A stretch of DNA of 64,000 nt, taken from assembly GCA_965649205.1 (NCBI GenBank), contig CBFGJV010000011.1, forward strand, positions 1-64,000. Direction: 5' to 3'. This stretch comes from a candidate division WOR-3 bacterium. Lineage in GTDB: Bacteria; Hydrothermota; Tepidihabitantia; Tepidihabitantales; Tepidihabitantaceae. Under the pieces are notes generated by a model. That model saw nothing but the letters and a program-made list of their open reading frames with translations. It was not told the origin of the DNA and ran no database searches. Numbering within the stretch: position 1 is the first letter of the stretch; every line of letters starts with the position of its first letter. Of the stretch, positions 15,964-29,273 are shown one piece after another. Made by a program: the position numbers and the translations under genes.

Positions 15964-17136
15964 ATGAAGGAACGCACTAAGTTTTTCATAATCCTCGCTG
16001 CGTTCCTGCTCTTCTATTTCCTGCCGGTGGAACATGCCCGGGTACAAGGAGCATTGCTCGAAGGTTTTCTGATGCTGCAAGATTACGCCCGGCTCCACGT
16101 GCTTCTCTGCCTGGTGCCAGCTTTTTTCATCGCTGGTGCAATCCAGAACTTCATCTCCAAGGAAGCGGTGCTCAAGTACTTCGGCCCGAAGTCAAACAAG
16201 GTGCTGGCGTATTCCGTCGCGTCGGTATCGGGCGCGATTCTCGCGGTCTGCTCCTGCACCGTGCTCCCGATGTTCATGGGCATCTACTACGCAGGCGCGG
16301 GTCTGGGCGTCGCCTCGACGTTCCTCTATTCCGGCCCGGCCATCAACGTCCTTGCCATTCTGATGACCGGCCGCGTGCTGGGCCTGGAGCTTGGGGCGGC
16401 ACGCGCCATCGGCGCAGTTGTCTTCTCGGTAGTCATCGGACTGGGTATGGCGCTTATCTTCTTCAGGTCGGAACGCCGGCGGGCCGAAGGCGCCGGTATC
16501 GCCGGACTCTCTTCGGAAGCGGCCCGGCGCAACCTCGGCCAGAACATCCTCTACTTCGCTGCGATGATTGCCTTCCTTGTCTTCGCCAACTGGGGCAAAC
16601 CCAAAGAACCCATCGGCTTCTTCAGCGCGGTCTATTCGGTCAAGTGGTTCATCGCCGGCGCATTCCTGCTCACCACGCTCTTGATGGTCTGGCGCTGGTT
16701 TTCGGGAGACGAAAGAAAGGCCTGGGTTCAGTCAACCTGGACCTTTGCCAAGCAGATTCTACCCCTGCTCCTCGGCGGCGTCTTTGTTGCCGGGTTCCTT
16801 CTGGGTCGGCCTGGGCTGAACGCGGGCATCATTCCGGACGGCATCATCGCCAACCTCGTCGGCGGCAACTCGCTCTGGGCCAACCTGTTTGCTTCGGTCT
16901 CGGGCGCGCTGATGTACTTCGCCACCCTGACTGAGATACCGATATTGCAGGGGCTGCTCGGCTCCGGAATGGGCAAAGGCCCGGCGCTCGCCTTGCTCCT
17001 CTCCGGCCCGGCGCTCTCCCTGCCCTCAATGATAGTCATCACCCGCACCATCGGTCCGAAGAAGGCACTTGCCTTCATCGGCCTTGTGGTAGTCCTCTCA
17101 ACCCTGGCTGGCTTGGCGTATGGAGCAGTTGTATAA
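15964..17136 (+). CDS. DUF318/ArsP-family permease
   Basis: CLVPAFFIAGAI, LAVCSCTVLPMF, FLYSGPAIN, MYFATLTE, GPALSLP. Confidence 0.9.
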   Translation: MKERTKFFIILAAFLLFYFLPVEHARVQGALLEGFLMLQDYARLHVLLCLVPAFFIAGAIQNFISKEAVLKYFGPKSNKVLAYSVASVSGAILAVCSCTVLPMFMGIYYAGAGLGVASTFLYSGPAINVLAILMTGRVLGLELGAARAIGAVVFSVVIGLGMALIFFRSERRRAEGAGIAGLSSEAARRNLGQNILYFAAMIAFLVFANWGKPKEPIGFFSAVYSVKWFIAGAFLLTTLLMVWRWFSGDERKAWVQSTWTFAKQILPLLLGGVFVAGFLLGRPGLNAGIIPDGIIANLVGGNSLWANLFASVSGALMYFATLTEIPILQGLLGSGMGKGPALALLLSGPALSLPSMIVITRTIGPKKALAFIGLVVVLSTLAGLAYGAVV

Positions 17137-17142
17137 TCAGCC

Positions 17143-18858
17143 ATGATACCCAAGGCGATTCGGCGCGAACATGTCCTAAAGGCCATCGAGGAGATAGACA
17201 AGAATGGAGCGCCCGAGCACAGGAAAGCCAAGAAGTTCCATCTCCGTTTTCGGGGACAAGACTACTCGCCCAAGCTGATTCTCTCGTTGGCCAGCCGCTT
17301 CGCATGTGGCCGTGAGCTTCGCCCGTCCGAGTTCGGCGGAGGCAGGGAGACTAACAACTTCCTGGAACGCCTTAGTTTCAAGATAACGGGCCAAGAAAAG
17401 CTTCTCCCGTCCAAAAAGAAAGCGCGACATAGCGATCGGTGTAGCGACTGCAAGAACGCCATCATCGAATTCCTGCGTCGGGCATATGGAACCGTCAAGG
17501 TTGACCACAGAATCCACGTGCCGGCGAGATTGGGTGGTTACCGTACCTATGGGTGCTACAACGCACTGAAGCGCATACACGCTGCTCTTCAGCAGTACAG
17601 GGGCCACGGTGACTTCGTAAGGCTTAGGAACTTGCACCGCTGCGATGCCTTCATACCCAGTGCCAACAGGGACGTTGAGTTCGACGAGTCTCAGCATTTC
17701 ACGATGGCTCGGCATATCGCGCTCTCCCACTACCCGGTGGATCTGCCGCTTGGCTTCGATAAGCAGGAGTGGATGGAGTACTGTGAGAAGACCCGGGCCA
17801 GTGACCGTGACCCGGCCTTTCGTGACGAACAACGGGCCTGGTATGACACGCTACGTGACTTCCTGCCACTGACCAAAGGGCTGAGTCCGACGCTGAGGAT
17901 TAGGATGGGAGATGTCGCATGGTGCTCAATGAATCCTGAAGACCGCGACGACGCAGAGAAGTTCCGCAGTCTGCTGGGGCTGCGCAGGCTGAGTCCAGTC
18001 GGAACGGCTCCACATGACAACAAGGCAGGTGCCAGAATAGTCACGGTGGCCATCGAGTCAGAAGGTAACTACAGCTTCAAGGGCAGGCAGAAGCTGATGA
18101 AGGAAGTCCTAACGAAGATCCAGAAGGTGATCTCGGGCGATTCGAACTTGGTGGTCTTTCCCGCCGGGTTCTTTCATACCCGCCTGGAGTTACCAAGGGG
18201 ACTTGAGGAGTTCACCGCATCGGCTCAGAGGATTCTTACGTCACTGGGTTCGCAGGATGTCGTCTGCTGCGGCATAGATGGACTCGGCGGAAGAGACCAG
18301 CTTGCCGTGGCGGTGAATCATGCGGATGTCCTGGCTGTCGGGCGGAAGTTCTATCCCACCAAGGACGACCGCGCGAACAACGTCCGCCTTGCCGAAGGTT
18401 ACCTTGCCCAGGAAGCCGGTCGAAGCAGAATCTTTGCAGTCGGGAACCGACGATTCTACTTGGCCGTGTGCTACGATGTCTTTGGAATCAGAAAGAAGGG
18501 GCTGCCAAACCCGGATGTTGAAGGTATCATCGCACTGGTACATGAATTCGGCCCCAAGGGTGAAGTTGGCTCCAGTGACCCGTATTTCGCGAAGCACGGC
18601 TTCGCCGGAGCTTCGAAGCAGTGGAGGTGCCCGGTATTCGGAGCGGCCGTCTTCAGCAACAGGGCAGTTCCCGAGAGATGGCCAACAGGGGTCATCTGGA
18701 GTGAAGGAAGCAAGAGCACAAAGCAGTGGCGCTATGAGGACAACCCGATGAAGCCCAGTGCTGAAGTCCACGTCAGAGTAGGTACTGAAGATGCACTGAT
18801 ACGCATCTTCGATCTTCCTACCGCTGGCAGCAACAGAGCCGTGACTGAAAGGAGATGA
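17143..18858 (+). CDS. Three-domain fusion: McrA-type N-terminal head domain, PD-(D/E)XK-like nuclease, carbon-nitrogen hydrolase (nitrilase)-fold domain
   Basis: N-term IPKAIRREHVLKAIEEID...YSPK...FGGGRETNNFL; middle CDAF...VEFDESQHF...RDEQRAWYDTLRD; C-term VVFPAG, RKFYP, LAVCYD. Confidence 0.65.
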   Translation: MIPKAIRREHVLKAIEEIDKNGAPEHRKAKKFHLRFRGQDYSPKLILSLASRFACGRELRPSEFGGGRETNNFLERLSFKITGQEKLLPSKKKARHSDRCSDCKNAIIEFLRRAYGTVKVDHRIHVPARLGGYRTYGCYNALKRIHAALQQYRGHGDFVRLRNLHRCDAFIPSANRDVEFDESQHFTMARHIALSHYPVDLPLGFDKQEWMEYCEKTRASDRDPAFRDEQRAWYDTLRDFLPLTKGLSPTLRIRMGDVAWCSMNPEDRDDAEKFRSLLGLRRLSPVGTAPHDNKAGARIVTVAIESEGNYSFKGRQKLMKEVLTKIQKVISGDSNLVVFPAGFFHTRLELPRGLEEFTASAQRILTSLGSQDVVCCGIDGLGGRDQLAVAVNHADVLAVGRKFYPTKDDRANNVRLAEGYLAQEAGRSRIFAVGNRRFYLAVCYDVFGIRKKGLPNPDVEGIIALVHEFGPKGEVGSSDPYFAKHGFAGASKQWRCPVFGAAVFSNRAVPERWPTGVIWSEGSKSTKQWRYEDNPMKPSAEVHVRVGTEDALIRIFDLPTAGSNRAVTERR

Positions 18859-18859
18859 C

Positions 18860-19099
18860 TTGAAAGTCCAGGTACTCGGAATCGGCTGTGCCCGATGTCA
18901 GGAACTCGAGAAGCGCGTGATGGACGTGCTTGCCGAGCTGAACATCGCGGCCGACATTGAACACGTCAAAGACCTCAAGCTCTTCGCCTCGATGGGTGTC
19001 TTCATGACGCCCGGGCTTGTCATTGACGGGAAGGTCGCCTCTCAAGGCAAAGTGCCGTCCAAAGACGAACTGAAGAAGATGCTCGGCGCGGGCAAGTAG
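18860..19099 (+). CDS. Small thioredoxin/glutaredoxin-like protein (MTH895 type)
   Basis: LGIGCARC, TPGLVIDG. TTG start after GAAAGGAG. Confidence 0.9.
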   Translation: MKVQVLGIGCARCQELEKRVMDVLAELNIAADIEHVKDLKLFASMGVFMTPGLVIDGKVASQGKVPSKDELKKMLGAGK

Positions 19100-19101
19100 C
19101 C

Positions 19102-19500
19102 ATGGCTGGGTGTTGCACCTCGAACGAACCAAGCTGCACCTGCGGCTCGAAGGACGTCCTGCTGCTGGCCTGCTCCGGCGGCTCGAACGTCGGACAGATT
19201 GCCAACGATGCGGCCAAGGCGCTCGACGGCTATGGCCAAGGTTCGATGTACTGCGCCATCGGCGTCGGTGCGCAACTAGAGAGTTTCGTCAAGAACGTCC
19301 GAGAGAACCCGTGCGTCGCGATTGACGGCTGTCCGGTAGCCTGCGTGCGCAAGTCATTGGAGAACGTCGGGGTGAGACCGGCGGTGCATGTGGTCGTCAC
19401 CGAACTGGGCATCAAGAAGCACGGCCAGTTCGACCACACCAACGACGACATGGCCAAGGTCGTCGGCGCAGTCGTGGACGCGCTGGCGCATAAGCCATGA
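19102..19500 (+). CDS. DGC-domain putative zinc-binding protein
   Basis: ACSGGSNVGQ, MYC, IDGCPVAC; Cys-rich N-terminus. Confidence 0.9.
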   Translation: MAGCCTSNEPSCTCGSKDVLLLACSGGSNVGQIANDAAKALDGYGQGSMYCAIGVGAQLESFVKNVRENPCVAIDGCPVACVRKSLENVGVRPAVHVVVTELGIKKHGQFDHTNDDMAKVVGAVVDALAHKP

Positions 19501-19754
19501 GCGCCCAACCCGACCCGCTCGTCTGCTATTGCGGCAAGGTCACGCGCGGTCGGATCATCTCTGCCATCCGCGCCGGGGCGATATCGCTCAAGCAGATTCA
19601 GGAGACGACCGGTGCCGGCGTCGGCGACCGCTGCAAGGAACTGAACCCTAAAGGCGTCTGCTGCATTCCGGACATCCTCGCCATTCTCAAAGAGGTAACC
19701 GGCACGAAAGAGACCGGCGGCTGCACCTGCCCGCGCTGCGGCCCGAAGCGGTAG
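19497..19754 (+). CDS. BFD-like [2Fe-2S]/metal-binding small protein
   Basis: VCYC...TTGAG...C..LNPKGVCC, C-terminal CTCPRC. ATGA overlap with the DGC gene. Confidence 0.85.
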   Translation: MSAQPDPLVCYCGKVTRGRIISAIRAGAISLKQIQETTGAGVGDRCKELNPKGVCCIPDILAILKEVTGTKETGGCTCPRCGPKR

Positions 19755-19833
19755 CTGTGCCCGTACTGGCCAATCCCGATGGTTTGCAGGTCTGCCGGCT
19801 TTGCAGAGCCGCGAAGTAGGCTAGAATGTAGCT

Positions 19834-19974
19834 ATGCAAATGAAACAACCACTCTTGCTGATAATGCTTGTCGTTACTCTGCTGGCCGCATGCGGCGAGA
19901 AGAAACCCGCGGCAAGCGGCAATCCGACCGACAGTACTCCGAAACCGGTGAACCCGTGCCCTACTGGTCGTTGA
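19834..19974 (+). CDS. Small lipoprotein, 46 aa (49 aa to TAG 19983 if the UGA is Sec); not in the ORF track
   Basis: MQMKQPLLLIMLVVTLLAAC GEKKPAASGNPTDSTPKPVNPCPTGR*. Lipobox LAAC; TAGAAT -10 box 6 nt before the ATG. Confidence 0.65.
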   Translation: MQMKQPLLLIMLVVTLLAACGEKKPAASGNPTDSTPKPVNPCPTGR

Positions 19975-20080
19975 GGATACTAGCCCCGGCGCGTGTCGCC
20001 GGGCATTGAGAGAATCTGCACGAACGGTGACGCTTCTGTGAAATAGATACTCGGCTGTAGCCACAGAGAAGCTCTGCCGG

Positions 20081-20212
20081 ACGATGCTCTACGGCCTTTC
20101 CTCGGGTGCGGCACTTGCCACGGTTGTTGGCGTCCTCATCGAAGTCCCGGTGATGCTCCTCTTGGTACGCATCTGCCTGCGCACGCGGCACTGGTTTCCG
20201 GTCCGGGCCTGA
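20081..20212 (+). pseudogene. acr3: 3' remnant of Acr3 arsenite efflux permease
   Basis: Translates to [43 protein letters not shown], the Acr3 C-terminal signature ([17 protein letters not shown]). No 5' part present. Confidence 0.85.
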
Positions 20213-20239
20213 TCAGCAACACGGCTCGTCGGTGCAGAG

Positions 20240-22996
20240 CTATATCCAGCCCTTGCGCAGCAGTAACCTCTTGACTCCCTGAGTAAGTGCCAGGTATCCG
20301 ACCAGAGTGAGCGCCAGCAAAGGCCAGTAGAGCAACGGCAATCGGACAAAGCCCAGCGCGCCGGCCAGGGGCGAGTAGGGCAACCAGACGCCTACGGCCA
20401 TTACCGCGAGCGTAGTCAGCGTGAGCGGCGCGCTGGCCCGGCTCTGAATGAGAGGTAATCGGTTGGTGCGGATGACGTGGATTATCAGCGTCTGCGTGAG
20501 CAGCGACTCGACGAACCAGCCGGTGTGGAACAGTGCCGCCTGGGCAGGGGTCTGGCACTTGAAGATGAAGTACATCATCAGGTAAGTCGTGTAATCGAAC
20601 ACCGAACTGCACGGCCCGATGAGGACGATGTAGCGGGAAATGGCACTCATAGTCCAGGGCCGGGGCCTGGCTATCTGCTCGGCGTCAACCGCATCGGTGG
20701 GAATCGGGACCTGCGAGAAGTCGTAGAGCAGGTTATTGGTCAGAATCTGTATCGGCGCCATCGGCAGGAAAGGCAGCCAGGCGCTCGCGCCCAGCACGCT
20801 GAACATATTCCCGAAGTTGGAGCTCGCACCCATCCTGACGTACTTCAGAATGTTGGCGAATACTTTCCTGCCTTCCAGCACCCCTTCTTCAAGAACAAGC
20901 AGGTCCTTTTCCAGCAGGATGAGGTCGGCGGACTCCTTGGCGATGTCCACCGCGGTATCAACCGAGATGCCCACATCCGCGGCCCGCAGCGCGGGAGCGT
21001 CGTTGATGCCGTCGCCCAGAAAGCCGACCACATGCTTGCGGCTCTGCAGTGCCATGATGATGCGTTGCTTGTGCGCGGGAGAGAGTCGCGCCATCAGGGT
21101 CGCCTGCTCGGCTGCGGCGGCAAGTTCCTCATCCGACATCGTCTCTATCTCGGGGCCGAGCAGTACGTGGTCGCCGGCGATACCCACTTCCTCGCAGATT
21201 TTCCTGCTGACCAACTGGTTGTCGCCGGTCAGCACCTTTACCGCGACGCCGTGGCGATTCAGAGTCTCGATGGCCGGGCGGGCGGTATGCTTGGGCGGGT
21301 CAAGGAACGCGACGTATCCCTTCAGCACCAGATCCTGCTCGTCGTCTTTGGTGTAGGTCTGCCTCGGCCGCAGTTCCCGGTAGGCCAGTGCCAGAACCCG
21401 GAACCCGTCGCTGCTCAGCCGCTCGTACTCCTCTTTCAGGTCATCAATCAGGAACGCCGCCATCGGATACAGGTTGCCGTTCAATTCGTATCGCGTGCAG
21501 CGCGCAAACACCGCCTCGGGCGCACCCTTGCAGATCAGCCGATGCCGTCCGCGGGTGCTCTTGACCACGACCGACATCAGCTTGCGCTCGAAGTCAAACG
21601 GCAGTTCGTCAACTTTCACGTGTTCCCGGGCCTGCAACCGTCCGTGCTCCTCGGTATGGCGCAGGATGGCCCGGTCGAGCACGTTGCGCAGGCCGGTCTG
21701 GAAGTAGCTGTTCAGATACGCCATCTCCAGCACCGTATCGTTTTCCTGCAACCCGACGTCGCAGTGCTGTTCTAAAATCACCTCGTCCACTGTGAGCGTG
21801 CCGGTCTTGTCGGTGCACAAGACGTCCATCGCGCCCAGGTTCTGAATGGAATTGAGCCGCTTGACGATGACCCGCTTGCGGGACATGGCGAGCGCGCCCT
21901 TGGAAAGACACACGGTCACAATCATCGGCAGCATCTCCGGCGTGAGCCCGACCGCTACCGCGACGGCGAAGAAGAAGGCTCCGCCCCAGTCGTGCTTGGT
22001 CAGCCCGTTTATGACGAAAACAAGCGGAACCAGTACCACCATGAAGCGGATCATCAGCCAGGTGAAACCGGAAACACCCTTGTCGAAACTCGTCTGCGCC
22101 CGCTGGCCGGACAGCGTGCTGCTCATCCCTCCCAGGTAGGTCCTGCGGCCTGTGGCGACGACCACGGCCGTCGCGGTGCCGCTCGCCACGCTGGTTCCCT
22201 GATAACACACGTTGCGATATTCCAGCGGAGTCGCGGCCGCGTCACCCGGCGCAAAGCGCCGGGAATCACGGGTTTCGCCCCTGAAACCCGATTCACTGCC
22301 CGCTTCAGCTCTTGCCGGGACTTCCGGGGTTTCCCCGGATTCCGGCCGAATCGGCCCTTCGCCGGTGAGGCCCGACTCGGGGCGTTGGACGCCCGGCGAT
22401 TCCGTCTTTTCAACCGGCAGGGACTCTCCTGTCAGGCTGCTCTGGCTCACGAACAGGTCCTTGGCCGTGAGCAATCTGACGTCGGCCGGAACCATATCGC
22501 CCGCCGCCAGGTTCACGACATCCCCGGGCACGAGCTCGCTCACGGGCAACTCCCGTGCCGCACCGTCACGCAGTACGTTGGCCGTGACGCGAATCATCGC
22601 CTTCAGGCGGGCCGCGGCCCGGTCGGCCCGGTACTCCTGAAGAAACCTGAGCGTTACCCCCAAGACAACCATCACCAGCATCACCATTGCGGCACGGACG
22701 TCTTTGGTCAAATACGAAATGACGGCGAGTATTGAGAGAAGTATCACCAGCGGATTGACAAGTGACAGCCCCAGCAGACGCAGCCAGCCGAACCGGCCTT
22801 CTTCGGCCAAGACGTTGTGACCGTGCAGCCCCTGTCGGCGCGATGCCTCCTCCTGGGTGAGACCATTTGCCGATGTCTGCAGCCTGGTGTATACCTCCGC
22901 GACCGACAGTGCGGCACACTCCACCAGAAGCGGAGATACCTGGATGCGCGCCGTCGCGCGGCGGAAAAAGCTGCTGCCCCTGCCCGGCACTGCCAT
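20240..22996 (-). CDS. mgtA: Mg2+-importing P-type ATPase
   Basis: TGESLPVEK, AVGLTPEMLPMI, DKTGTLT, GDGINDAP, ASSNFGN, FHTGWFVES. Confidence 0.95.
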   Translation of the reverse strand: MAVPGRGSSFFRRATARIQVSPLLVECAALSVAEVYTRLQTSANGLTQEEASRRQGLHGHNVLAEEGRFGWLRLLGLSLVNPLVILLSILAVISYLTKDVRAAMVMLVMVVLGVTLRFLQEYRADRAAARLKAMIRVTANVLRDGAARELPVSELVPGDVVNLAAGDMVPADVRLLTAKDLFVSQSSLTGESLPVEKTESPGVQRPESGLTGEGPIRPESGETPEVPARAEAGSESGFRGETRDSRRFAPGDAAATPLEYRNVCYQGTSVASGTATAVVVATGRRTYLGGMSSTLSGQRAQTSFDKGVSGFTWLMIRFMVVLVPLVFVINGLTKHDWGGAFFFAVAVAVGLTPEMLPMIVTVCLSKGALAMSRKRVIVKRLNSIQNLGAMDVLCTDKTGTLTVDEVILEQHCDVGLQENDTVLEMAYLNSYFQTGLRNVLDRAILRHTEEHGRLQAREHVKVDELPFDFERKLMSVVVKSTRGRHRLICKGAPEAVFARCTRYELNGNLYPMAAFLIDDLKEEYERLSSDGFRVLALAYRELRPRQTYTKDDEQDLVLKGYVAFLDPPKHTARPAIETLNRHGVAVKVLTGDNQLVSRKICEEVGIAGDHVLLGPEIETMSDEELAAAAEQATLMARLSPAHKQRIIMALQSRKHVVGFLGDGINDAPALRAADVGISVDTAVDIAKESADLILLEKDLLVLEEGVLEGRKVFANILKYVRMGASSNFGNMFSVLGASAWLPFLPMAPIQILTNNLLYDFSQVPIPTDAVDAEQIARPRPWTMSAISRYIVLIGPCSSVFDYTTYLMMYFIFKCQTPAQAALFHTGWFVESLLTQTLIIHVIRTNRLPLIQSRASAPLTLTTLAVMAVGVWLPYSPLAGALGFVRLPLLYWPLLALTLVGYLALTQGVKRLLLRKGWI

Positions 22997-22997
22997 A

Positions 22998-23051
22998 CTA
23001 GAAGCGGCGGACAGGTTCTCCGGCCGGTCGTTGGTTATTGCGGTTTTTCAC
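22998..23051 (-). CDS. Putative 17-aa leader peptide upstream of mgtA
   Basis: GTG start, MKNRNNQRPAGEPVRRF-TAG. Stop lies 1 nt before the mgtA ATG; start lies 6 nt below a TAGACT -10 box. Confidence 0.4.
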   Translation of the reverse strand: MKNRNNQRPAGEPVRRF

Positions 23052-23057
23052 GCCGCC

Positions 23058-23087
23058 AGTCTAGCCTGACCTGGTGCGAGAAGTCAA
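23058..23087 (-). promoter_or_regulatory. sigma70-like promoter for the mgtA leader
   Basis: TTGACT, 18 nt, TAGACT on the minus strand. Confidence 0.5.
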
Positions 23088-23130
23088 TAGGAAATCAGCG
23101 GCCCAGGCGCCGGGCTCGCCAATCAGAACA

Positions 23131-23685
23131 CTAGCGGTCCAACTGGTTCAGCCGCGCCTGCGCCCGGTTCAGCCGCTCGTCGAGAAACCGCTCTACATCG
23201 CTGACCGCTTCCGCATCGGAGATAACTGAGAACGCCGCAGCCATTCTTCTGGTCTCCTCCAGTTGCACCTCGGCCCAGTCCAGCACCGCGGCGGACGAAC
23301 CGGCCCGTCGCAGGCGTGCGACCTCGCGCAGCATCGCGCTTGCCTTGTGTTCGTACTGGTACTGCAGACGGCGGTTCGCGGCTGCTCCCGCGGACTGGTC
23401 GGTGGAATTCGGCCTTGTTGAGGCCGTAGACGAGCGGCCGGTCGCCGTCTGGCTGATGAGTTCGCCCCAGGACTTGTGCGCGAGCATCGGCACGCCCACG
23501 GCTGTCAGAGTCAAGAGCCAGGCAACGGCCAGTCCGAGCAGCACCGCCCATCTGACCCGAGATCCCGCGTGCGGCGCGTATTCGCCGGGCCGAGCACCGC
23601 AGGCGAAACAGAACACCTGCCCGGCCGTCATCTTCTCTCCGCAGAAAGGACAGCGGCCCTGGTCCTGACCCTCGCTCAACTTCAT
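23131..23685 (-). CDS. Zinc-ribbon, single-TM hypothetical protein with helical C-terminus
   Basis: CPFCG...CFACG followed by a hydrophobic helix. ATG 23685 overlaps the upstream stop (ATGA). Confidence 0.7.
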   Translation of the reverse strand: MKLSEGQDQGRCPFCGEKMTAGQVFCFACGARPGEYAPHAGSRVRWAVLLGLAVAWLLTLTAVGVPMLAHKSWGELISQTATGRSSTASTRPNSTDQSAGAAANRRLQYQYEHKASAMLREVARLRRAGSSAAVLDWAEVQLEETRRMAAAFSVISDAEAVSDVERFLDERLNRAQARLNQLDR

Positions 23686-24380
23686 TCCTTCCCTGGCCGA
23701 AGTCTGAACCGGCCGCGGCCGGCCTTGCCCGAGCCGTGCCGCGGCTGGATTCCAGGCAGGCCGCACAGCTTGGCTATCGCGCGGTCCCAGGCATCCCGTT
23801 CCCTGCCCGGTTCCTGGTTGGAGCGCCAGTCCTGGCGCTGTTTGAGTTCCCCCAGGTCCTGAACCAGTTCGGCCACCTTACCCTGCTCAGCTCTGAGCAG
23901 GTCGGCACGCAGCACCGCGTCGCTGGTTTGCTCCAGGACGAGCGCAAAGTGCGGCAGGCACAGTCCGGGCGACTCCTGGTAACGAACCTGCAGAGCCTCA
24001 TCCCGGAAATGCGCGACAAACTCCTCCACACCCTGCCGCTCTGCTTCCGCTTCTTCCGCGCACAGCGCGCAGTCCTTTCCGGAAACAGGCTGTCGGCCGG
24101 CCTCCAGCAGGATGCGCACCATTTTCATCAGGTCTTCGTAGATGATGGTCTGCCCCAGCACGTCGCCGGCAGAGCGCACGAGCCAGGCGTGCCGGTTACA
24201 GAAACCCAGAGACCTGCGCAGTTGCTCCCGGGTGCCGAGGTCATTGACGCGCTCGTACAACAGCGTGTCTATCCAGCGCGCGGTGCGCCGGGTGACCAGA
24301 TGGCAAATGGGACAGCCCCTTGCCAGCGCGTCCAGTATCTCCTGCAATACTACTCCGGCCGGTCCTCTGCGTGCGCTCAT
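23682..24380 (-). CDS. DUF6062-like Cys/His metal-binding protein
   Basis: Duplicated module: CPIC...GFCNRH and CALC...GLCLPH; LLYERVND motif. Confidence 0.75.
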   Translation of the reverse strand: MSARRGPAGVVLQEILDALARGCPICHLVTRRTARWIDTLLYERVNDLGTREQLRRSLGFCNRHAWLVRSAGDVLGQTIIYEDLMKMVRILLEAGRQPVSGKDCALCAEEAEAERQGVEEFVAHFRDEALQVRYQESPGLCLPHFALVLEQTSDAVLRADLLRAEQGKVAELVQDLGELKQRQDWRSNQEPGRERDAWDRAIAKLCGLPGIQPRHGSGKAGRGRFRLRPGKE

Positions 24381-24586
24381 CTTGCCAGACGACCAACCAG
24401 AAGCGCGACGCCCACGCTCAGGCCGAAGAGAGCAAGGAAGGTTACCACTTCTGCCCTCAGCGCCTCGCCTATGACCTGTCTTCGGCCGAGTTTGTGCCGT
24501 TGGTACTCCATATAGACGATGGCAAACGCCGCTCCGCCGCCCAGGAGACTGAACGTTCCGTTCACCGCGAGCAGCGTGCCCAGCAT
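24377..24586 (-). CDS. Small two-helix membrane protein (69 aa)
   Basis: Two hydrophobic segments around YMEYQRH. Translationally coupled to neighbours. Confidence 0.7.
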   Translation of the reverse strand: MLGTLLAVNGTFSLLGGGAAFAIVYMEYQRHKLGRRQVIGEALRAEVVTFLALFGLSVGVALLVGRLAR

Positions 24587-24595
24587 CGGACCGCC

Positions 24596-25846
24596 CTATT
24601 GCTGCTGTGAAGTCCCATTCTCCGGCTCCTCTTCCTCGGCGTCCGGGATGAGGCGCACGTCACCGCGCGCGCCCTCGGGCTGGCCCATCGCGTCCACATC
24701 CGGCAGAAGGTGCCGCGGCAGGAAGGCAAGCGTGGCGATGACTGTCGGCACCACCGCGCTGGCGATGACCGCGGCGACCAGGAACGAATACTGCGCCTCA
24801 TTGACGATGCCGTGCGAGAACCCGTACAGGGCCGATATAGTCCCAAAAGTCAGACCGGTTGACATCATCAGAGTATAATACCAGCGTTCAGTGCGTTCCT
24901 TCCGGTAGTGGGAGATTACCGGAAACAGCCCCAGTGTCTTGGTCAGCACCTTGCCCCCGAGCAAAGCGAGGAACACGAGCGGAGCGCCGATGAGCGCCGG
25001 CAGGGAGACAAGCGAGCCGGCCCGGATGAAGTAGAACGGCGTGAGAAACCCCACTGTCAGAGTGCGCAGGCGCCGGACAAAGTCGTGGTCCATCGCCGAA
25101 GACCCGGCCAGCACCATCCCGATGAGATAGGCGGGCAGTACCGCCTCGCTTCCTGACCAGAGCGCCAGCGCTCCCAGCCCGAACACGACAAGCGCCACCC
25201 ACTTGGTACGCACTGCGGCGGTGCGGCCGGCATAGCGGCGGGCAAGCCTCCTGGTGGCAAAGGGCAAAGCGACCAGCACTACGGCTGTCGCGACGGCAAA
25301 CACAGCGGTCTTGACCGTGAAAGGCGCGAAGATGAAGGCCAGGGCCAGCACCGTGCCCAGGTCGTTCACGAAACACGCGCCCAGTATCCCCTTGCCGAAC
25401 TCGGTCTTGTTGAAACCTGTCTCCAGCATCACCGCGTACACTACTGCCATCGAAGTAGTGGAAAGCGCCACACCGGCGAGCAGGCTTGCCTTCACGCCCC
25501 AATGAAGCAGAAAATGCGCCAGCGCCGCGCAACCCAGGAACGGAGCGAAGAACCCGACCAGGCCGATTACCGTCACCTCGCCCAGCTTGCGCCGCAGTAC
25601 TGATGGTTCAAGCTCGGCCCCGGCCAGAAAGGTGAGCATCACCGCGCCGGTCGCGGCCAGAAACCGCAGCCATTCGGCGTTCGCACCCAACGAGCCCGGC
25701 CCGAAAAAGCGCGTGGCAAAAGCACCCGCGGCCACGCCGACGCATATTTCTACGAGGGCGATTGAAACCCGCAGATGATTGGCGATGATGGTGGCGACGA
25801 CCGCCAGGGCAAGCCAGACTGCGGCCAGAACAAACGTCTCCTGCAA
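24596..25846 (-). CDS. Cation:proton antiporter (CPA2 family)
   Basis: LTFLAGAE, LSTTSMAVV, FVNDLG, FLTPFYFIRAG; many TM helices. TTG start at 25846 after GGAGG. Confidence 0.88.
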   Translation of the reverse strand: MQETFVLAAVWLALAVVATIIANHLRVSIALVEICVGVAAGAFATRFFGPGSLGANAEWLRFLAATGAVMLTFLAGAELEPSVLRRKLGEVTVIGLVGFFAPFLGCAALAHFLLHWGVKASLLAGVALSTTSMAVVYAVMLETGFNKTEFGKGILGACFVNDLGTVLALAFIFAPFTVKTAVFAVATAVVLVALPFATRRLARRYAGRTAAVRTKWVALVVFGLGALALWSGSEAVLPAYLIGMVLAGSSAMDHDFVRRLRTLTVGFLTPFYFIRAGSLVSLPALIGAPLVFLALLGGKVLTKTLGLFPVISHYRKERTERWYYTLMMSTGLTFGTISALYGFSHGIVNEAQYSFLVAAVIASAVVPTVIATLAFLPRHLLPDVDAMGQPEGARGDVRLIPDAEEEEPENGTSQQQ

Positions 25847-25874
25847 AGAATCCTCCGGTTCACTGCTTATCGGA

Positions 25875-25900
25875 CAAACCCGGGCAACGGAAGTACCCGG
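25875..25900 (-). terminator. Possible riboswitch expression-platform hairpin
   Basis: Minus strand CCGGGTAC-TTCC-GTTGCCCGG then GTTTG, directly 3' of the aptamer. Weak U-tract. Confidence 0.4.
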
Positions 25901-25904
25901 CCTT

Positions 25905-25951
25905 GCAGGAGTCATCAGCCCGCAGGCGATTCTACGGGGGACTCCATCCCC
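25905..25951 (-). ncRNA. Fluoride riboswitch (crcB motif)
   Basis: Minus strand GGGGAUGGAGUCCCCCGUAGAAUCGCCUGCGGGCUGAUGACUCCUGC. P1 GGGGA/UCCCC, pseudoknot GGAGU/ACUCC, P3 GCC/GGC, conserved GAUG and UGAUGAC. Confidence 0.92.
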
Positions 25952-25960
25952 GCGGATGAG

Positions 25961-25988
25961 ATTATAGCGCGAACGAACCAGCCTGCAA
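25961..25988 (-). promoter_or_regulatory. sigma70 promoter for the riboswitch operon
   Basis: TTGCAG, 16 nt, TATAAT; 9 nt upstream of the aptamer. Confidence 0.6.
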
Positions 25989-26577
25989 GCCTGGCTCCAG
26001 AACCCGACAGTGGGATGATTTGGGGATTCCTGTTCGTGGTTGGGTACGCGCCTGTCAGCAGAACTGACCGTGCTGGTGGCGGCAACACTGCGTAGCTTCA
26101 TCGCTTCTCATCTGCTGTCATAGTTGGCGAACCCCCTGGCGACACAGGTGCGGCTGGAGCTTGCGACCATACTGCAACGTTGCCTGGCCACGCTTGTCGC
26201 GGCCTGACCGCCTGCGCATCTGTCCGGGCAACCGTTACCGGAAGTTGCGGCGCGCGCGGCTACCCAACTGAGTGGGGGAGTCACTTCCCCCTCTACAGGC
26301 CAAACAAGGCCGTCAACCAACCTTCAGAAGGTAACTCGCTGTGAGAGTAGTTTTTAGCGCGGTTTCAGACAGAAATGCCGGGTTCGGCCGGTATCCACTT
26401 CCAAGCCAAGCAGTTGAGCAGTCACAACGGCAACAATACAGGAATCCAGCAGGTTAGGCGTTCGGGCAGGTTGGGAATAGGCCTGGCAAAACCACAGCCG
26501 GACGACTGTGAGCGTTGGCGCAAGACGCGACTCCAGCCGCTCTGGAAACGACTGCTGGCCGGGCAGGACATCCGCCG

Positions 26578-26622
26578 CTGACATCTGACACTTGACTTCC
26601 AGCTTCTAGCTTCTGGCATCTG
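26578..26622. repeat. Degenerate 7-nt tandem array
   Basis: ctgacat ctgacac ttgactt ccagctt ctagctt ctggcat ctg. Confidence 0.6.
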
Positions 26623-26677
26623 CCCTCGTCCGCTCCTCCTGTTGACTCCCGCCCGTTTCTACCCTAGCATCCCGGCG

Positions 26678-27172
26678 ATGGGCAAGACCTGCTGTCTGCT
26701 TCTGGCCGCCTGCCTCGCGCTACTCTTCGCCGGCTGCGACGAACTGTTCTACGCCGGGCTGAACGAAGCCGAATCCACCCCGGACAGGCCGGTGTTCCTG
26801 CTCGGCAAGGACGGCAGTCTCTTTCATGGTATGGCCAAGGTGTACGGGTTCCGTCTCAGCGGCCGGCCCAGGAAACCGCCGCCCCGGCCGGACGCCGTGA
26901 ATCTCTGGCTTGAGTTCTGGTCGGCTCAAGCCGACTCCGGCCTGCGCTACATCGAGGTACACAAGATTGCCTATGGCGAACTGCCCGAACGCACGTTCCT
27001 CGTCTTCGGCCCTGATACTCTGCGTGCCGGGTTCATCTACAGCTTCAATCCCTGGTATCACGGCCTCGGCACCGCCGCCTACTTCGAAATCACGCAGGAC
27101 AGCTCGGGAGCCAGGGCGATCCACGCCCTGACCGAAGAGGAGTTCCTGGCAATAATCCACGATACGCTCTGA
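26678..27172 (+). CDS. Hypothetical lipoprotein
   Basis: Signal peptide with lipobox FAGC. ATG lies 7 nt after TTGACT-17-TAGCAT. Confidence 0.75.
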   Translation: MGKTCCLLLAACLALLFAGCDELFYAGLNEAESTPDRPVFLLGKDGSLFHGMAKVYGFRLSGRPRKPPPRPDAVNLWLEFWSAQADSGLRYIEVHKIAYGELPERTFLVFGPDTLRAGFIYSFNPWYHGLGTAAYFEITQDSSGARAIHALTEEEFLAIIHDTL

Positions 27173-27936: not shown

Positions 27937-28229
27937 CACTTCACTAGGCCTACGGGGTCAGGTGCTGCCTTTTTCACGGAAACGCTGAGCGATGAGTTCT
28001 GAGTACTGAACGAAGGGAGAAGAAGACGCTGACCGCCTGATTGCGGCGTAAGCTCTGTCCGACCGCCTGCCCCTCGTCACCTCAGACACGGTCTTCCGCC
28101 GCTGAGGCGTCAGAGTCGTCGAGCGGCAACGCTCCCTCGTCCTGCCAGGTCTGTGTGTGAGACAAGAGCCATAGGAAACTGCTTCCCAAAATCGAGAAGG
28201 ACGATAACAGGTACCTCGCCGGTTGTCCG

Positions 28230-29273
28230 GAATTGCAGAGACGCTACACGCAGGGCCCTTCCTAGTCTTGCGGCGTGTCAATATCGTAGCGCTTACCGAC
28301 CCGCGGCCCACCTTCTCCTTTGCCGCCAGCTTCATCGTGGGCATGAACAGGTTGGGCTTGAGCGCTATCAGCCGGTCCACCTGCATCAGTGCCAGAAGCT
28401 CCTCCTTCGTGTCATACCGGCGATAACCAGCATAGCTGCGCACCAGACTCCAGTTCTTGCTCTCCACGTAGGGCGAGCCATCCTTCCGGTACGTCCTGGT
28501 GAAGCGCAACTTGTGTGTATCGGCAAACTTCGCCAGCGCCTGGTTGATGACATTGCTCGAATGGAGAGCAGTAACCGGAAACGGCGACGCACGTAGCGCG
28601 CTCTTCATCGCCAGTATCCCCCAGATGTGCGCCTTGTTGCACAACACCTGCCAAGGGCTCTGCCCGCCGTGACTTACCAGGTCTATCTCCAGATACCCAA
28701 GCTGCTTCTTAGGTTTGTCGTGGTAGGTTTCCACCGGGATGCATTTCTTGAGCCAGGAGGCGAAGGGTTGGACCTGTAGCGGCGTTTAGCCAGAAGCTCT
28801 TTCCGGACTGGTCGGAGTAAGCGGTCCACGGTAGATGGGCTGATAGTCTGAAACTTAGCCTTGACCTCGGCAGATGCTTTCTTGAGCTTGGGATGGCAGA
28901 ACAACCACTGGTGGTTGAGGTGGATGAAGTGAGCGAGGTGGAGGGAAGACGGGTAGCGGGCAAGCTGCCAGAGGGCGAGCAGATAGGGCAGCATATCTGG
29001 GCCGTAGCGTTTCTTGTGGCCGCGGCGCGAGAGGAGGGAGCAGGACGGGTCGGCGATGACGGTAGTGCTGTGGCGGTGACCTTCTGGCCAACGTGGCGGA
29101 GGACGAAACTGAGATGCTTCCGGCCGAGGTGTGTGATATCTGTCAGCTCGTCCAGCAGTGCGGACCTGGTCTTCTTTCTTGCGGCCCGGTACTTTGAAGC
29201 ATTGGCGGAGATGATGGACTTCTTAGCGGTCACGGTGTAGACCCCTTCTGGTATTGTGGCTACCACTGGACAT
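28230..29273 (-). mobile_element. Degraded IS transposase (integrase-core/DDE type), multiple frameshifts
   Basis: Pieces in different frames: KYRAARKK..LLDEL; ISPSTVDRLL; GYLEIDLVSH; FTR..YVESKN..VR..GYRRYDT; KRYDIDTP. ATG 29273 after AAGGAGA. Confidence 0.8.

Follow-up and report, generated by a model that had tools for sequence, protein, structure and literature searches.

A candidate modification-dependent nuclease with a ScoMcrA-type head, a Vsr/AbaSI-like nuclease domain and a remodelled nitrilase fold, encoded within an ars-type operon

Why does an ars-type operon carry a gene for a predicted nuclease, and what would the nitrilase fold at the end of that protein recognise? We addressed these questions for an open reading frame (ORF) in the first 64,000 nucleotides (nt) of contig CBFGJV010000011.1 (assembly GCA_965649205.1; hereafter the window), from a candidate division WOR-3 bacterium of the Hydrothermota. 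The ORF lies at window positions 17143-18858 on the forward strand, encodes 571 amino acids (aa) with no internal stop and starts 6 nt past the stop codon of an ArsP_1 permease gene, as a first-pass annotation of the letters alone had stated. That annotation proposed an anti-phage nuclease with a degenerate amidase domain. From predicted folds matched to solved structures, conserved residues, an empty junction in relatives, tail exchange and gene neighbours, we tentatively favour the reading that the gene may well encode a stand-alone restriction nuclease that depends on DNA modification (type IV-like) and uses a nitrilase fold to read the base. The gene and its parts are as follows.

17143..18858, + strand: three-domain gene (head, Vsr/AbaSI-like nuclease, remodelled nitrilase fold), 571 aa
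17143..17394, + strand: ScoMcrA-type N-terminal head, aa 1-84 (PF26345, profile, fold)
17422..17988, + strand: predicted Vsr/AbaSI-like nuclease, DUF7255-related, aa 94-282 (fold, profile, weak DUF7255 matches)
17440..17454, + strand: C100-x-x-C103-K104, invariant in 120/120 homologues
17644..17697, + strand: putative nuclease active site, D168...E179-F-D181-E182-S-Q184-H185 (AbaSI motif alignment)
17986..18024, + strand: flexible linker, aa 282-294, and tail-swap point (similarity to the copy in related genome G017 ends at or just before it)
18025..18816, + strand: nitrilase (carbon-nitrogen hydrolase) fold without the FPE glutamate, aa 295-558 (Foldseek, fold, profile)
18157..18543, + strand: remodelled active-site residues F339PAG, D379, Q386, R401-K402, D409, C443-Y-D445 and H467

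The protein had no match above cut-off in local Pfam, NCBIfam or PADLOC libraries and gave weak matches to DUF7255 (E 0.043) and Lnt (E 0.004). AlphaFold2 modelled three confident domains (mean predicted local distance difference test score, pLDDT, 90.4) joined by loose, low-confidence linkers at aa 85-93 and 282-294, with a predicted template modelling score (pTM) of 0.57. All of the motifs quoted in the first-pass annotation (C100-x-x-C103, D168, E179FDESQH185, RDEQRAWYD, F339PAG, R401KF and V442CYD) are present, and each of its three domain assignments holds. The head resembles that of ScoMcrA (PDB 5zmm) by profile (E 8e-4) and by fold (Z 8.1, root-mean-square deviation (rmsd) 5.0 over 71 aa, 27% identity), the alignment being limited to model residues 4-93 with the remaining protein assigned to other folds, and PF26345 (ScoMcrA_N, from newer Pfam) is precomputed on 116/120 of the best matches. 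In ScoMcrA, too, the head is small, flexibly attached and of unknown role (PMC6224610).

Folded alone, the middle domain reached a pLDDT of 94.9, and its best fold match was Vsr (PDB 1cw0; Z 6.3, rmsd 3.5, 109 aa), followed by RAP domains, the homing endonuclease I-Bth0305I (Z 5.5) and many PD-(D/E)XK nucleases; most of the 50 fold-match rows were PD-(D/E)XK folds. A profile of 80 nuclease domains aligned weakly to AbaSI (E 0.073) but exactly over the catalytic stretch, where D168, E179, D181, E182 and H185 fall on D61, E72, D74, E75 and H78 of the AbaSI motif D61...E72-V-D74-E75-G-H77-H78 with identical spacing. The AbaSI variants D61A, E75A and H78A are inactive (PMC4081097). The five residues are invariant in 120/120 homologues, the set to which conservation counts refer unless stated otherwise, and in 80/80 of the profile domains; the conserved Asp and the E-x-D-E-x-x-H motif lie on the expected strands (Asp on beta-2, the motif after beta-3). 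The CxxC cysteines could, with the invariant C214 and C261, form a structural metal site, and K104 may correspond to AbaSI K23. Weak CopA/CopZ-like matches of the CxxC region (E 0.006-0.8) account for the label 'copper chaperone CopZ' on three of the matches.

Foldseek paired the tail with yeast Nit2 (E 8e-10), its alignment with formamidase 5g3o gave Z 20.0 (rmsd 3.4, 228 aa), and the top 24 VIA rows were all members of the nitrilase superfamily (Z 15.5-20.0); the model predicts the four-layer alpha-beta-beta-alpha nitrilase fold, and Pfam gave no CN_hydrolase match to this domain. The catalytic triad of nitrilases is Glu-Lys-Cys. At the position of the FPE glutamate the present protein has A341, and homologues have Gly (83/120) or Ala (37/120) and in no case Glu (0/120). 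Since the catalytic Glu is absent, the domain has the nitrilase fold but is not a canonical member of the triad enzymes. The FPA-for-FPE change noted earlier is correct, but the term 'degenerate' falls short of describing the tail: C443, D445, D379, Q386 and H467 are invariant in 120/120 homologues and K402 is present in 119/120, with Glu at the position of D409 in 117/120. The same residue pattern recurs in 32 head-plus-tail proteins and 19 stand-alone tails. When the tail is aligned by profile with the family's own canonical FPE tails (probability 93%), FPAG falls on FPEG, RKF on KH and CYD on CHD. A second Glu-less subtype, TCGG (profile probability 75.5%), shares the G-x-D aspartate and the histidine after the Cys strand, neither of which occurs in the canonical FPE subtype. 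Judged by these residue patterns, the active site looks rebuilt rather than dead or simply decayed, and Asp379 and His467 may compensate for the lost Glu.

The gene is real and intact, and it is neither an artefact nor unique to this assembly; it is one member of a large family, as yet without a name, that spans bacteria and archaea. Of 7,995 scored candidates, 701 were homologues at E<=1e-3. Apart from the protein itself, 114 of the best 119 matches align over at least 92% of its length with 39-50% identity, so the quoted motifs go far beyond what chance would give and the fusion extends well beyond one genome. A profile search recovered 3,783 representatives (E<=1e-3), 511 of them at 1e-30. 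The 244 loci found among 185,579 species genomes (GTDB) range from Bacillota, Bacteroidota and Acidobacteriota through methanogens and Bathyarchaeia; within the host's own order, 4/66 genomes have any match, and these four carry four different tails.

Tail exchange is visible in place. The copy in G017 (locus L096) shares the upstream junction and is 74% identical over aa 1-282, after which its tail has no detectable similarity; the two genes are sisters on the nuclease tree with support of 99. On that quick tree of 71 nuclease-domain rows (9/80 rows without an assignable tail were left out), distant taxa are mixed and there are 12 changes of tail type, where 5 would be the minimum. Behind the nuclease we counted 145 tails of at least 150 aa, including some duplicate rows, of which 89 fall in the Glu-less cluster and 32 in the canonical FPE/CN_hydrolase cluster; at least 121/145 are thus of nitrilase type, and about 11/145 belong to a non-nitrilase family. 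A set of 147 representatives includes 49 proteins with head, nuclease and another tail, 32 with head and tail, 19 with the tail alone and 9 with nuclease, tail and an extra domain. Searching with the tail recovered 81 metagenome and viral loci, in which we counted 21 head-nuclease-tail, 18 head-tail and 40 tail-alone arrangements (7 truncated), and a separate nuclease gene abuts the tail gene in 4/81 (L158, L159, L162 and L199). A search of IMG/VR with the full alignment gave 25 pattern matches and 0 confirmed relatives, one with the tail alignment found 1 head-plus-tail copy, 50,697 phage records gave 0 matches and 72,556 plasmids gave 1 partial head match; a phage-borne role is therefore unsupported.

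Several further variants were seen in passing. The G017-type (E) and type D tails resemble nitrilases in motif only, profile comparison leaving them unconfirmed (probability <=8%), and type F tails were ruled out as nitrilase-like by profile comparison. A non-nitrilase tail family has a conserved 'Y(A/S)(P/C)CxxxxGP' motif and either forms a fusion with this nuclease or follows it directly as a separate gene (L051, L055, L204, P0147, P0184, P0202, P0207, P0208, P0210 and P0263); those scanned have no Pfam match, and this tail is possibly another reader domain. Head-less versions (P0127, P0128, P0130, P0132, P0134, P0136, P0138, P0141, P0264, P0266 and P0267) have instead one of two unannotated C-terminal domains of ~100 aa with 0 Pfam matches, both of which are common to the two Glu-less tail types. 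At L128:1240-2856 and L130:5093-5911, a protein that looks tubulin/FtsZ-like by eye (0 Pfam matches) precedes the tail or forms a fusion with it. A TCGG-type copy in G019:C60 (L205/L206) has a frameshift between head and nuclease and is cut short beside a 415-aa transposase-like ORF.

The invariant nuclease motif, the ScoMcrA head, the nitrilase-type majority of tails, their exchange, the occurrence of the tail with the head alone or beside a separate nuclease gene, and the base-handling and family-wide defence neighbours described below all support the restriction-nuclease reading. On that reading, the head would give general DNA binding, and the tail, placed where AbaSI has its SRA reader after a nuclease of this type, would detect a chemical alteration of a base in viral or plasmid DNA entering the cell. 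A flipped base bearing a C-N side group could fit the tail's Cys/Lys pocket, candidates being the nitrile, amide or formamide groups of 7-deazaguanine derivatives. If Asp379 and His467 replace the lost Glu, they might permit slow or covalent chemistry rather than none. Binding would then license metal-dependent cleavage by D168, E179, D181, E182 and H185 next to the altered base, probably by a dimer, and a swap of tails would change the modification seen. The ars operon would be a landing site only, supplying transcription. Suitable targets exist: dPreQ0 and dADG are present on viral DNA (PMC6884629), as is fdPreQ1 (10.1101/2023.04.13.536721), and DpdC is an enzyme that acts on preQ0 inside DNA (PMC10164549). 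The END nucleases offer a precedent for a repurposed enzyme fold serving as a modified-base sensor on a nuclease (PMC12191111). A bolder form of the proposal, which we consider improbable, makes the tail a rebuilt Cys-Lys-Asp/His hydrolase that would attack the nitrile, amide or formamide of hypermodified viral bases in DNA (dPreQ0, dADG, fdPreQ1 or similar) and, for want of the Glu, would linger as a covalent adduct, tethering the nuclease to the modified site; such a tail would read phage DNA modifications by chemistry and be a plug-in re-aimed by swapping and shared among Vsr-like, GIY-YIG-like and glycosylase-like defence modules.

To place the family in its genomic context, we ran PADLOC on ORFs within 4 kb of the homologues, counting as strict those matches with E<1e-30 that remained after removal of UvrD, AAA, sigma-54 and GlgB look-alikes. 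The present subtype gave any match in 23/128 proteins and a strict match in 10/128 (4/32 loci), the TCGG subtype 17/113 and 11/113 (7/20 loci), and the FPE subtype, for which 121/128 candidates were scanned, 28/121 and 14/121 (12/19 loci); the control, arbitrary stretches of 20 related genomes, gave 12/126 and 5/126 (2/20 loci). Pooled, 23/71 family loci compare with 2/20 control loci (p=0.039), a modest enrichment of the wider family for defence neighbours. The earlier inference of defence thus finds support at the level of the family but not of the present subtype, which is not clearly enriched (loci 4/32 vs 2/20, p=0.58; proteins 10/128 vs 5/126, p=0.15). The 142 neighbours of the GTDB loci are varied: ribosomal proteins stand at one end, and at the other are an integrative element, a Druantia-like helicase and a helicase/restriction island. 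No conserved partner gene, methyltransferases included, was found for the present subtype; a type II methyltransferase lies within 4 kb in 3/71 family loci (L024, L052 and L065).

A scan of 133/238 candidate ORFs around the tail loci, nearest first, found an adjacent predicted base-handling gene in 8/60 non-redundant loci. These comprise DUF6884 in four (L132, L148, L166 and L181), the PADLOC candidate PDC-M57B in two more (L157 and L177; also in L132), a weak N-glycosylase match next to the tail of L131 (also upstream in L148 and L166) and Nmad3 adjoining the tail at L141; L157 also has a UDG neighbour. DUF6884 occurs in 0/61 genomes of the host's order and scores over cut-off in 1/14 control genomes; Pfam curators have suggested that it binds DNA and flips a base, and it has been suggested to bind lesions (PMC11701544). 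Integrases or transposases flank several other tail loci. In operons with DUF6884 and a stand-alone tail, we also noticed three proteins with a C-terminal Cys cluster (L131:4679-5929, L148:524-1450 and L166:4605-5510), which from this motif we take to be HhH/endonuclease III-like; for the glycosylase-like neighbours, neither Pfam HhH nor PDB sequences gave a match, and 3/5 had weak NCBIfam matches to N-glycosylase/DNA lyase (E 0.002-0.009). DUF6884, an HhH-like protein and a stand-alone tail are possibly an undescribed base-modification defence module.

A number of observations weigh against a modification-dependent restriction nuclease. The Vsr score is middling and lies within the range of common arrangements, Foldseek gave 0 matches at E<=1e-3 for the nuclease domain alone, and the AbaSI fold score is Z 2.9, so the evidence for the nuclease fold is moderate; the motif evidence is stronger. 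We know of no nitrilase-fold domain that binds DNA. Because most metagenome tail loci are without the nuclease (33 of the 81 have the tail alone and 17 have only the head with it), the tail need not be a mere reader. PADLOC-DB 2.0 (2023 library) gave 0 families at E<=1 for the protein itself, and many neighbours of the present subtype, whose lack of clear enrichment is given above, are housekeeping genes. The pooled defence signal comes mostly from the canonical FPE subtype, itself largely a single clade; the strict rule was set after the matches had been seen, and the statistic is weakened by kinship, short contigs and a control unmatched by taxon. Four of the eight base-handling loci are kin, with tails 57-76% identical, and DNA repair would account just as well for the DUF6884, UDG and glycosylase neighbours.

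The position of the gene in the window bears on how it arrived. The gene run reads ArsR - DsbD - thioredoxin - ArsP permease - ORF - thioredoxin - DGC - BFD, and the features bordering the ORF are as follows.

15964..17136, + strand: left flank, ArsP_1 permease gene (Pfam E 1e-72)
18847..18854, + strand: GAAAGGAG, thioredoxin ribosome-binding site inside the ORF's last codons, 5 nt before the TTG
18860..19099, + strand: right flank, MTH895/ArsE-family thioredoxin-like gene with a TTG start (TIGR00412 above cut-off)

Relatives have loci in which the ArsP_1 permease is followed directly by the thioredoxin: 8 of the 13 arsP-thioredoxin junctions found are empty, with the thioredoxin within about 120 nt of the permease, four hold other genes and one holds the G017 homologue (G017:C75). 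Since other genes occupy the same junction in relatives, it is a variable slot; those genes (L094 in G003, L095 in G016, L098 in G012 and L099 in G009) are ars-type by eye in the three read, and the contents seen were an ArsC-like protein, a second permease and an Acr3-like/universal-stress block. The site GAAAGGAG does lie in the last codons of the ORF, as first noted, but the ORF does not supply it: GAAAGGA stands at the same place in 6/8 empty-site relatives, so the ribosome-binding site is native to the operon and the ORF runs over it. The ORF's last ~12 residues form an unconserved overhang (pLDDT <50 at 564-571), and in 90/120 homologues the C-terminal end lies within 2 residues of position 559.

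Compared with the same-genus empty allele, identity is 95-98% in the middle of arsP, 64-94% in its 3' half, 85-89% in the thioredoxin and 98-100% in DGC; against G001 (same genus), the middle of arsP and DGC are 95-100% identical and DsbD and the first thioredoxin 75-80%. The operon thus looks like a recombination mosaic, and we found no flanking direct, inverted or terminal repeats of note around the gene. This pattern fits arrival by recombination through the flanking genes. Among 161 homologue loci, none has a match to ArsR, DsbD, ArsP, the downstream thioredoxin, DGC or BFD (one has a weak match to the upstream thioredoxin), so the ars operon is incidental.

Other observations at the locus stand by themselves. 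A perfect TATAAT at window positions 17132-17137 lies across the arsP stop, with 5 nt separating it from the ATG of the ORF, and is also present in G017; no close Shine-Dalgarno sequence lies near this ATG, and the hexamer could be a leaderless promoter. A TATAAT start as a family trait was rejected, being seen at 1/90 homologue starts. From the start of arsP, guanine-plus-cytosine (GC) content rises from ~0.50 to 0.56-0.66 (window ~16000-27000; genome 0.54), and near the right end of this high-GC stretch a 258-aa ORF (27958-28734, - strand) resembles an integrase/transposase fragment by eye, with 0 Pfam matches.

How else might these data be explained? One alternative, which we regard as unlikely, is an anti-phage protein whose nitrilase domain acts on or senses a small molecule (a nucleotide, an NAD-type cofactor or a signal), as has been proposed for the nitrilase effector of DRT1; this ligand would switch on the nuclease, or the nuclease would work in parallel to bring about abortive infection. 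The nitrilase domains of DRT1 are required effectors of unknown substrate (PMC13275509), and this explanation would also suit the frequent occurrence of the tail alone or with the head only, the loosely linked domains of the model (pTM 0.57) and the family-wide defence neighbours. It sits less well with the recurring partners of the tail, which are DNA-binding, DNA-cutting or base-handling genes, with the derivation of both the head and the nuclease type from modification-dependent restriction enzymes, and with the annotated neighbours, which include no reverse transcriptase (RT) or cyclase. We give a similarly low weight to DNA repair, in which acyl or amide adducts on host bases would be recognised or removed by the tail, and a nick made by the Vsr-like domain would start patch repair. 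The best fold match is a repair nickase, the tail's neighbours include DUF6884, UDG (L157) and weak N-glycosylase/DNA lyase matches, and many copies of the present subtype lie among housekeeping genes; however, the very patchy spread (4/66 genomes of the order; 244 loci in 185,579 species genomes), a tree on which distant taxa intermingle, the exchange of tails and the broken copy beside a transposase-like ORF suit conflict genes better, and glycosylase folds are themselves reused for defence (10.1101/2025.10.29.685425).

The junction raises two further explanations. A selfish homing endonuclease could cut the empty arsP-thioredoxin allele and copy itself in with the nitrilase domain as cargo, and I-Bth0305I is indeed among the top fold matches, identity to the empty allele is lower to either side of the gene, as co-conversion would produce, and the gene has no terminal repeats; but its homologues lie at unrelated sites (0/161 loci with ars-operon genes), homing has no need of an invariant hydrolase site, and ordinary recombination through the flanking genes explains the mosaic, which together make homing very unlikely. 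A role alongside the arsenic/metal operon, with the CxxC or the reactive Cys binding or processing a metal(loid), would account for the position inside the operon and for the weak CopA/CopZ-like matches to the CxxC; we find it scarcely credible, given that 0/161 homologue loci have these operon genes and eight relatives have the operon without the gene.

If the gene does encode a modification-dependent nuclease, how does it relate to characterised proteins? Vsr, which the middle domain matched best in fold, is a small nickase of one domain that acts alongside a cytosine methyltransferase, whereas the present protein has three domains and no conserved methyltransferase neighbour. AbaSI, of the PvuRts1I/AbaSI family of 5-hydroxymethylcytosine-dependent type IV restriction enzymes (PDB 4par; PMC4081097), has a Vsr-like nuclease, the D-x10-E-x-D-E-x-x-H motif at identical spacing and a C-terminal domain in the reader position, but this domain is an SRA rather than a nitrilase fold, and the head and CxxC/insert region are extra here; with a sequence E of 0.073 and a fold Z of 2.9 only, the kinship is at the level of the motif. 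ScoMcrA, a phosphorothioate/5-methylcytosine-dependent type IV restriction endonuclease (PDB 5zmm; PMC6224610), shares the N-terminal head and a modular beads-on-a-string layout, but its sulfur-binding, SRA and HNH domains have no counterpart here. The END nucleases likewise combine, in a single gene, a nuclease with a repurposed base-processing fold and have their specificity assigned to a swappable C-terminal domain, but theirs is an inactive endonuclease III fold with PLD or NucS rather than a nitrilase fold keeping Cys and Lys with a Vsr-like nuclease; the word 'nitrilase' is absent from the main text of the END paper (PMC12191111). DRT1/UG5 RT-nitrilases place a nitrilase fold of unknown substrate in a defence setting, but as an RT fusion with a catalytic tetrad (PMC13275509); the present protein has a nuclease and lacks the first Glu, and no RT domain was found in it or among annotated neighbours. 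Because the defining domains are absent, the gene lies outside the AbaSI, ScoMcrA and DRT1 families. By analogy, the architecture would work like a type IV restriction enzyme, and, as in those enzymes, there is no cognate methyltransferase partner.

The first-pass annotation knew of no characterised system with this architecture, and literature searches returned no paper joining nitrilase with ScoMcrA, modification-dependent restriction or PvuRts1I. Other searches brought up papers on RT-nitrilases, ScoMcrA, END, glycosylases, Dpd and unrelated subjects, none of them about this fusion; subscription papers and bioRxiv supplements lay outside their scope, and a listing in a supplementary table is possible. 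The locus contributes an empty site, a tail swap in place, an Asp/His pattern that accompanies loss of the Glu, and a link between the tail and DUF6884/PDC-M57-type modules. Phages and archaeal viruses evade restriction by decorating bases, including with nitrile-, amide- and formamide-bearing 7-deazaguanines (PMC6884629; 10.1101/2023.04.13.536721), and the readers of modified bases in the cited literature have SRA, sulfur-binding, EVE-type, winged-helix or glycosylase folds. If the favoured reading is true, the nitrilase fold would be a new class of reader, possibly one that reacts with its target, and the family would give a first handle on the role of nitrilase domains in defence that the DRT1 work left open. 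Since this is a single gene with a natural tail-swap pair in G017, the proposal is cheap to test, and it could yield tools for mapping rare DNA modifications. The family itself is a branch of the nitrilase fold without the textbook catalytic Glu yet with an invariant site.

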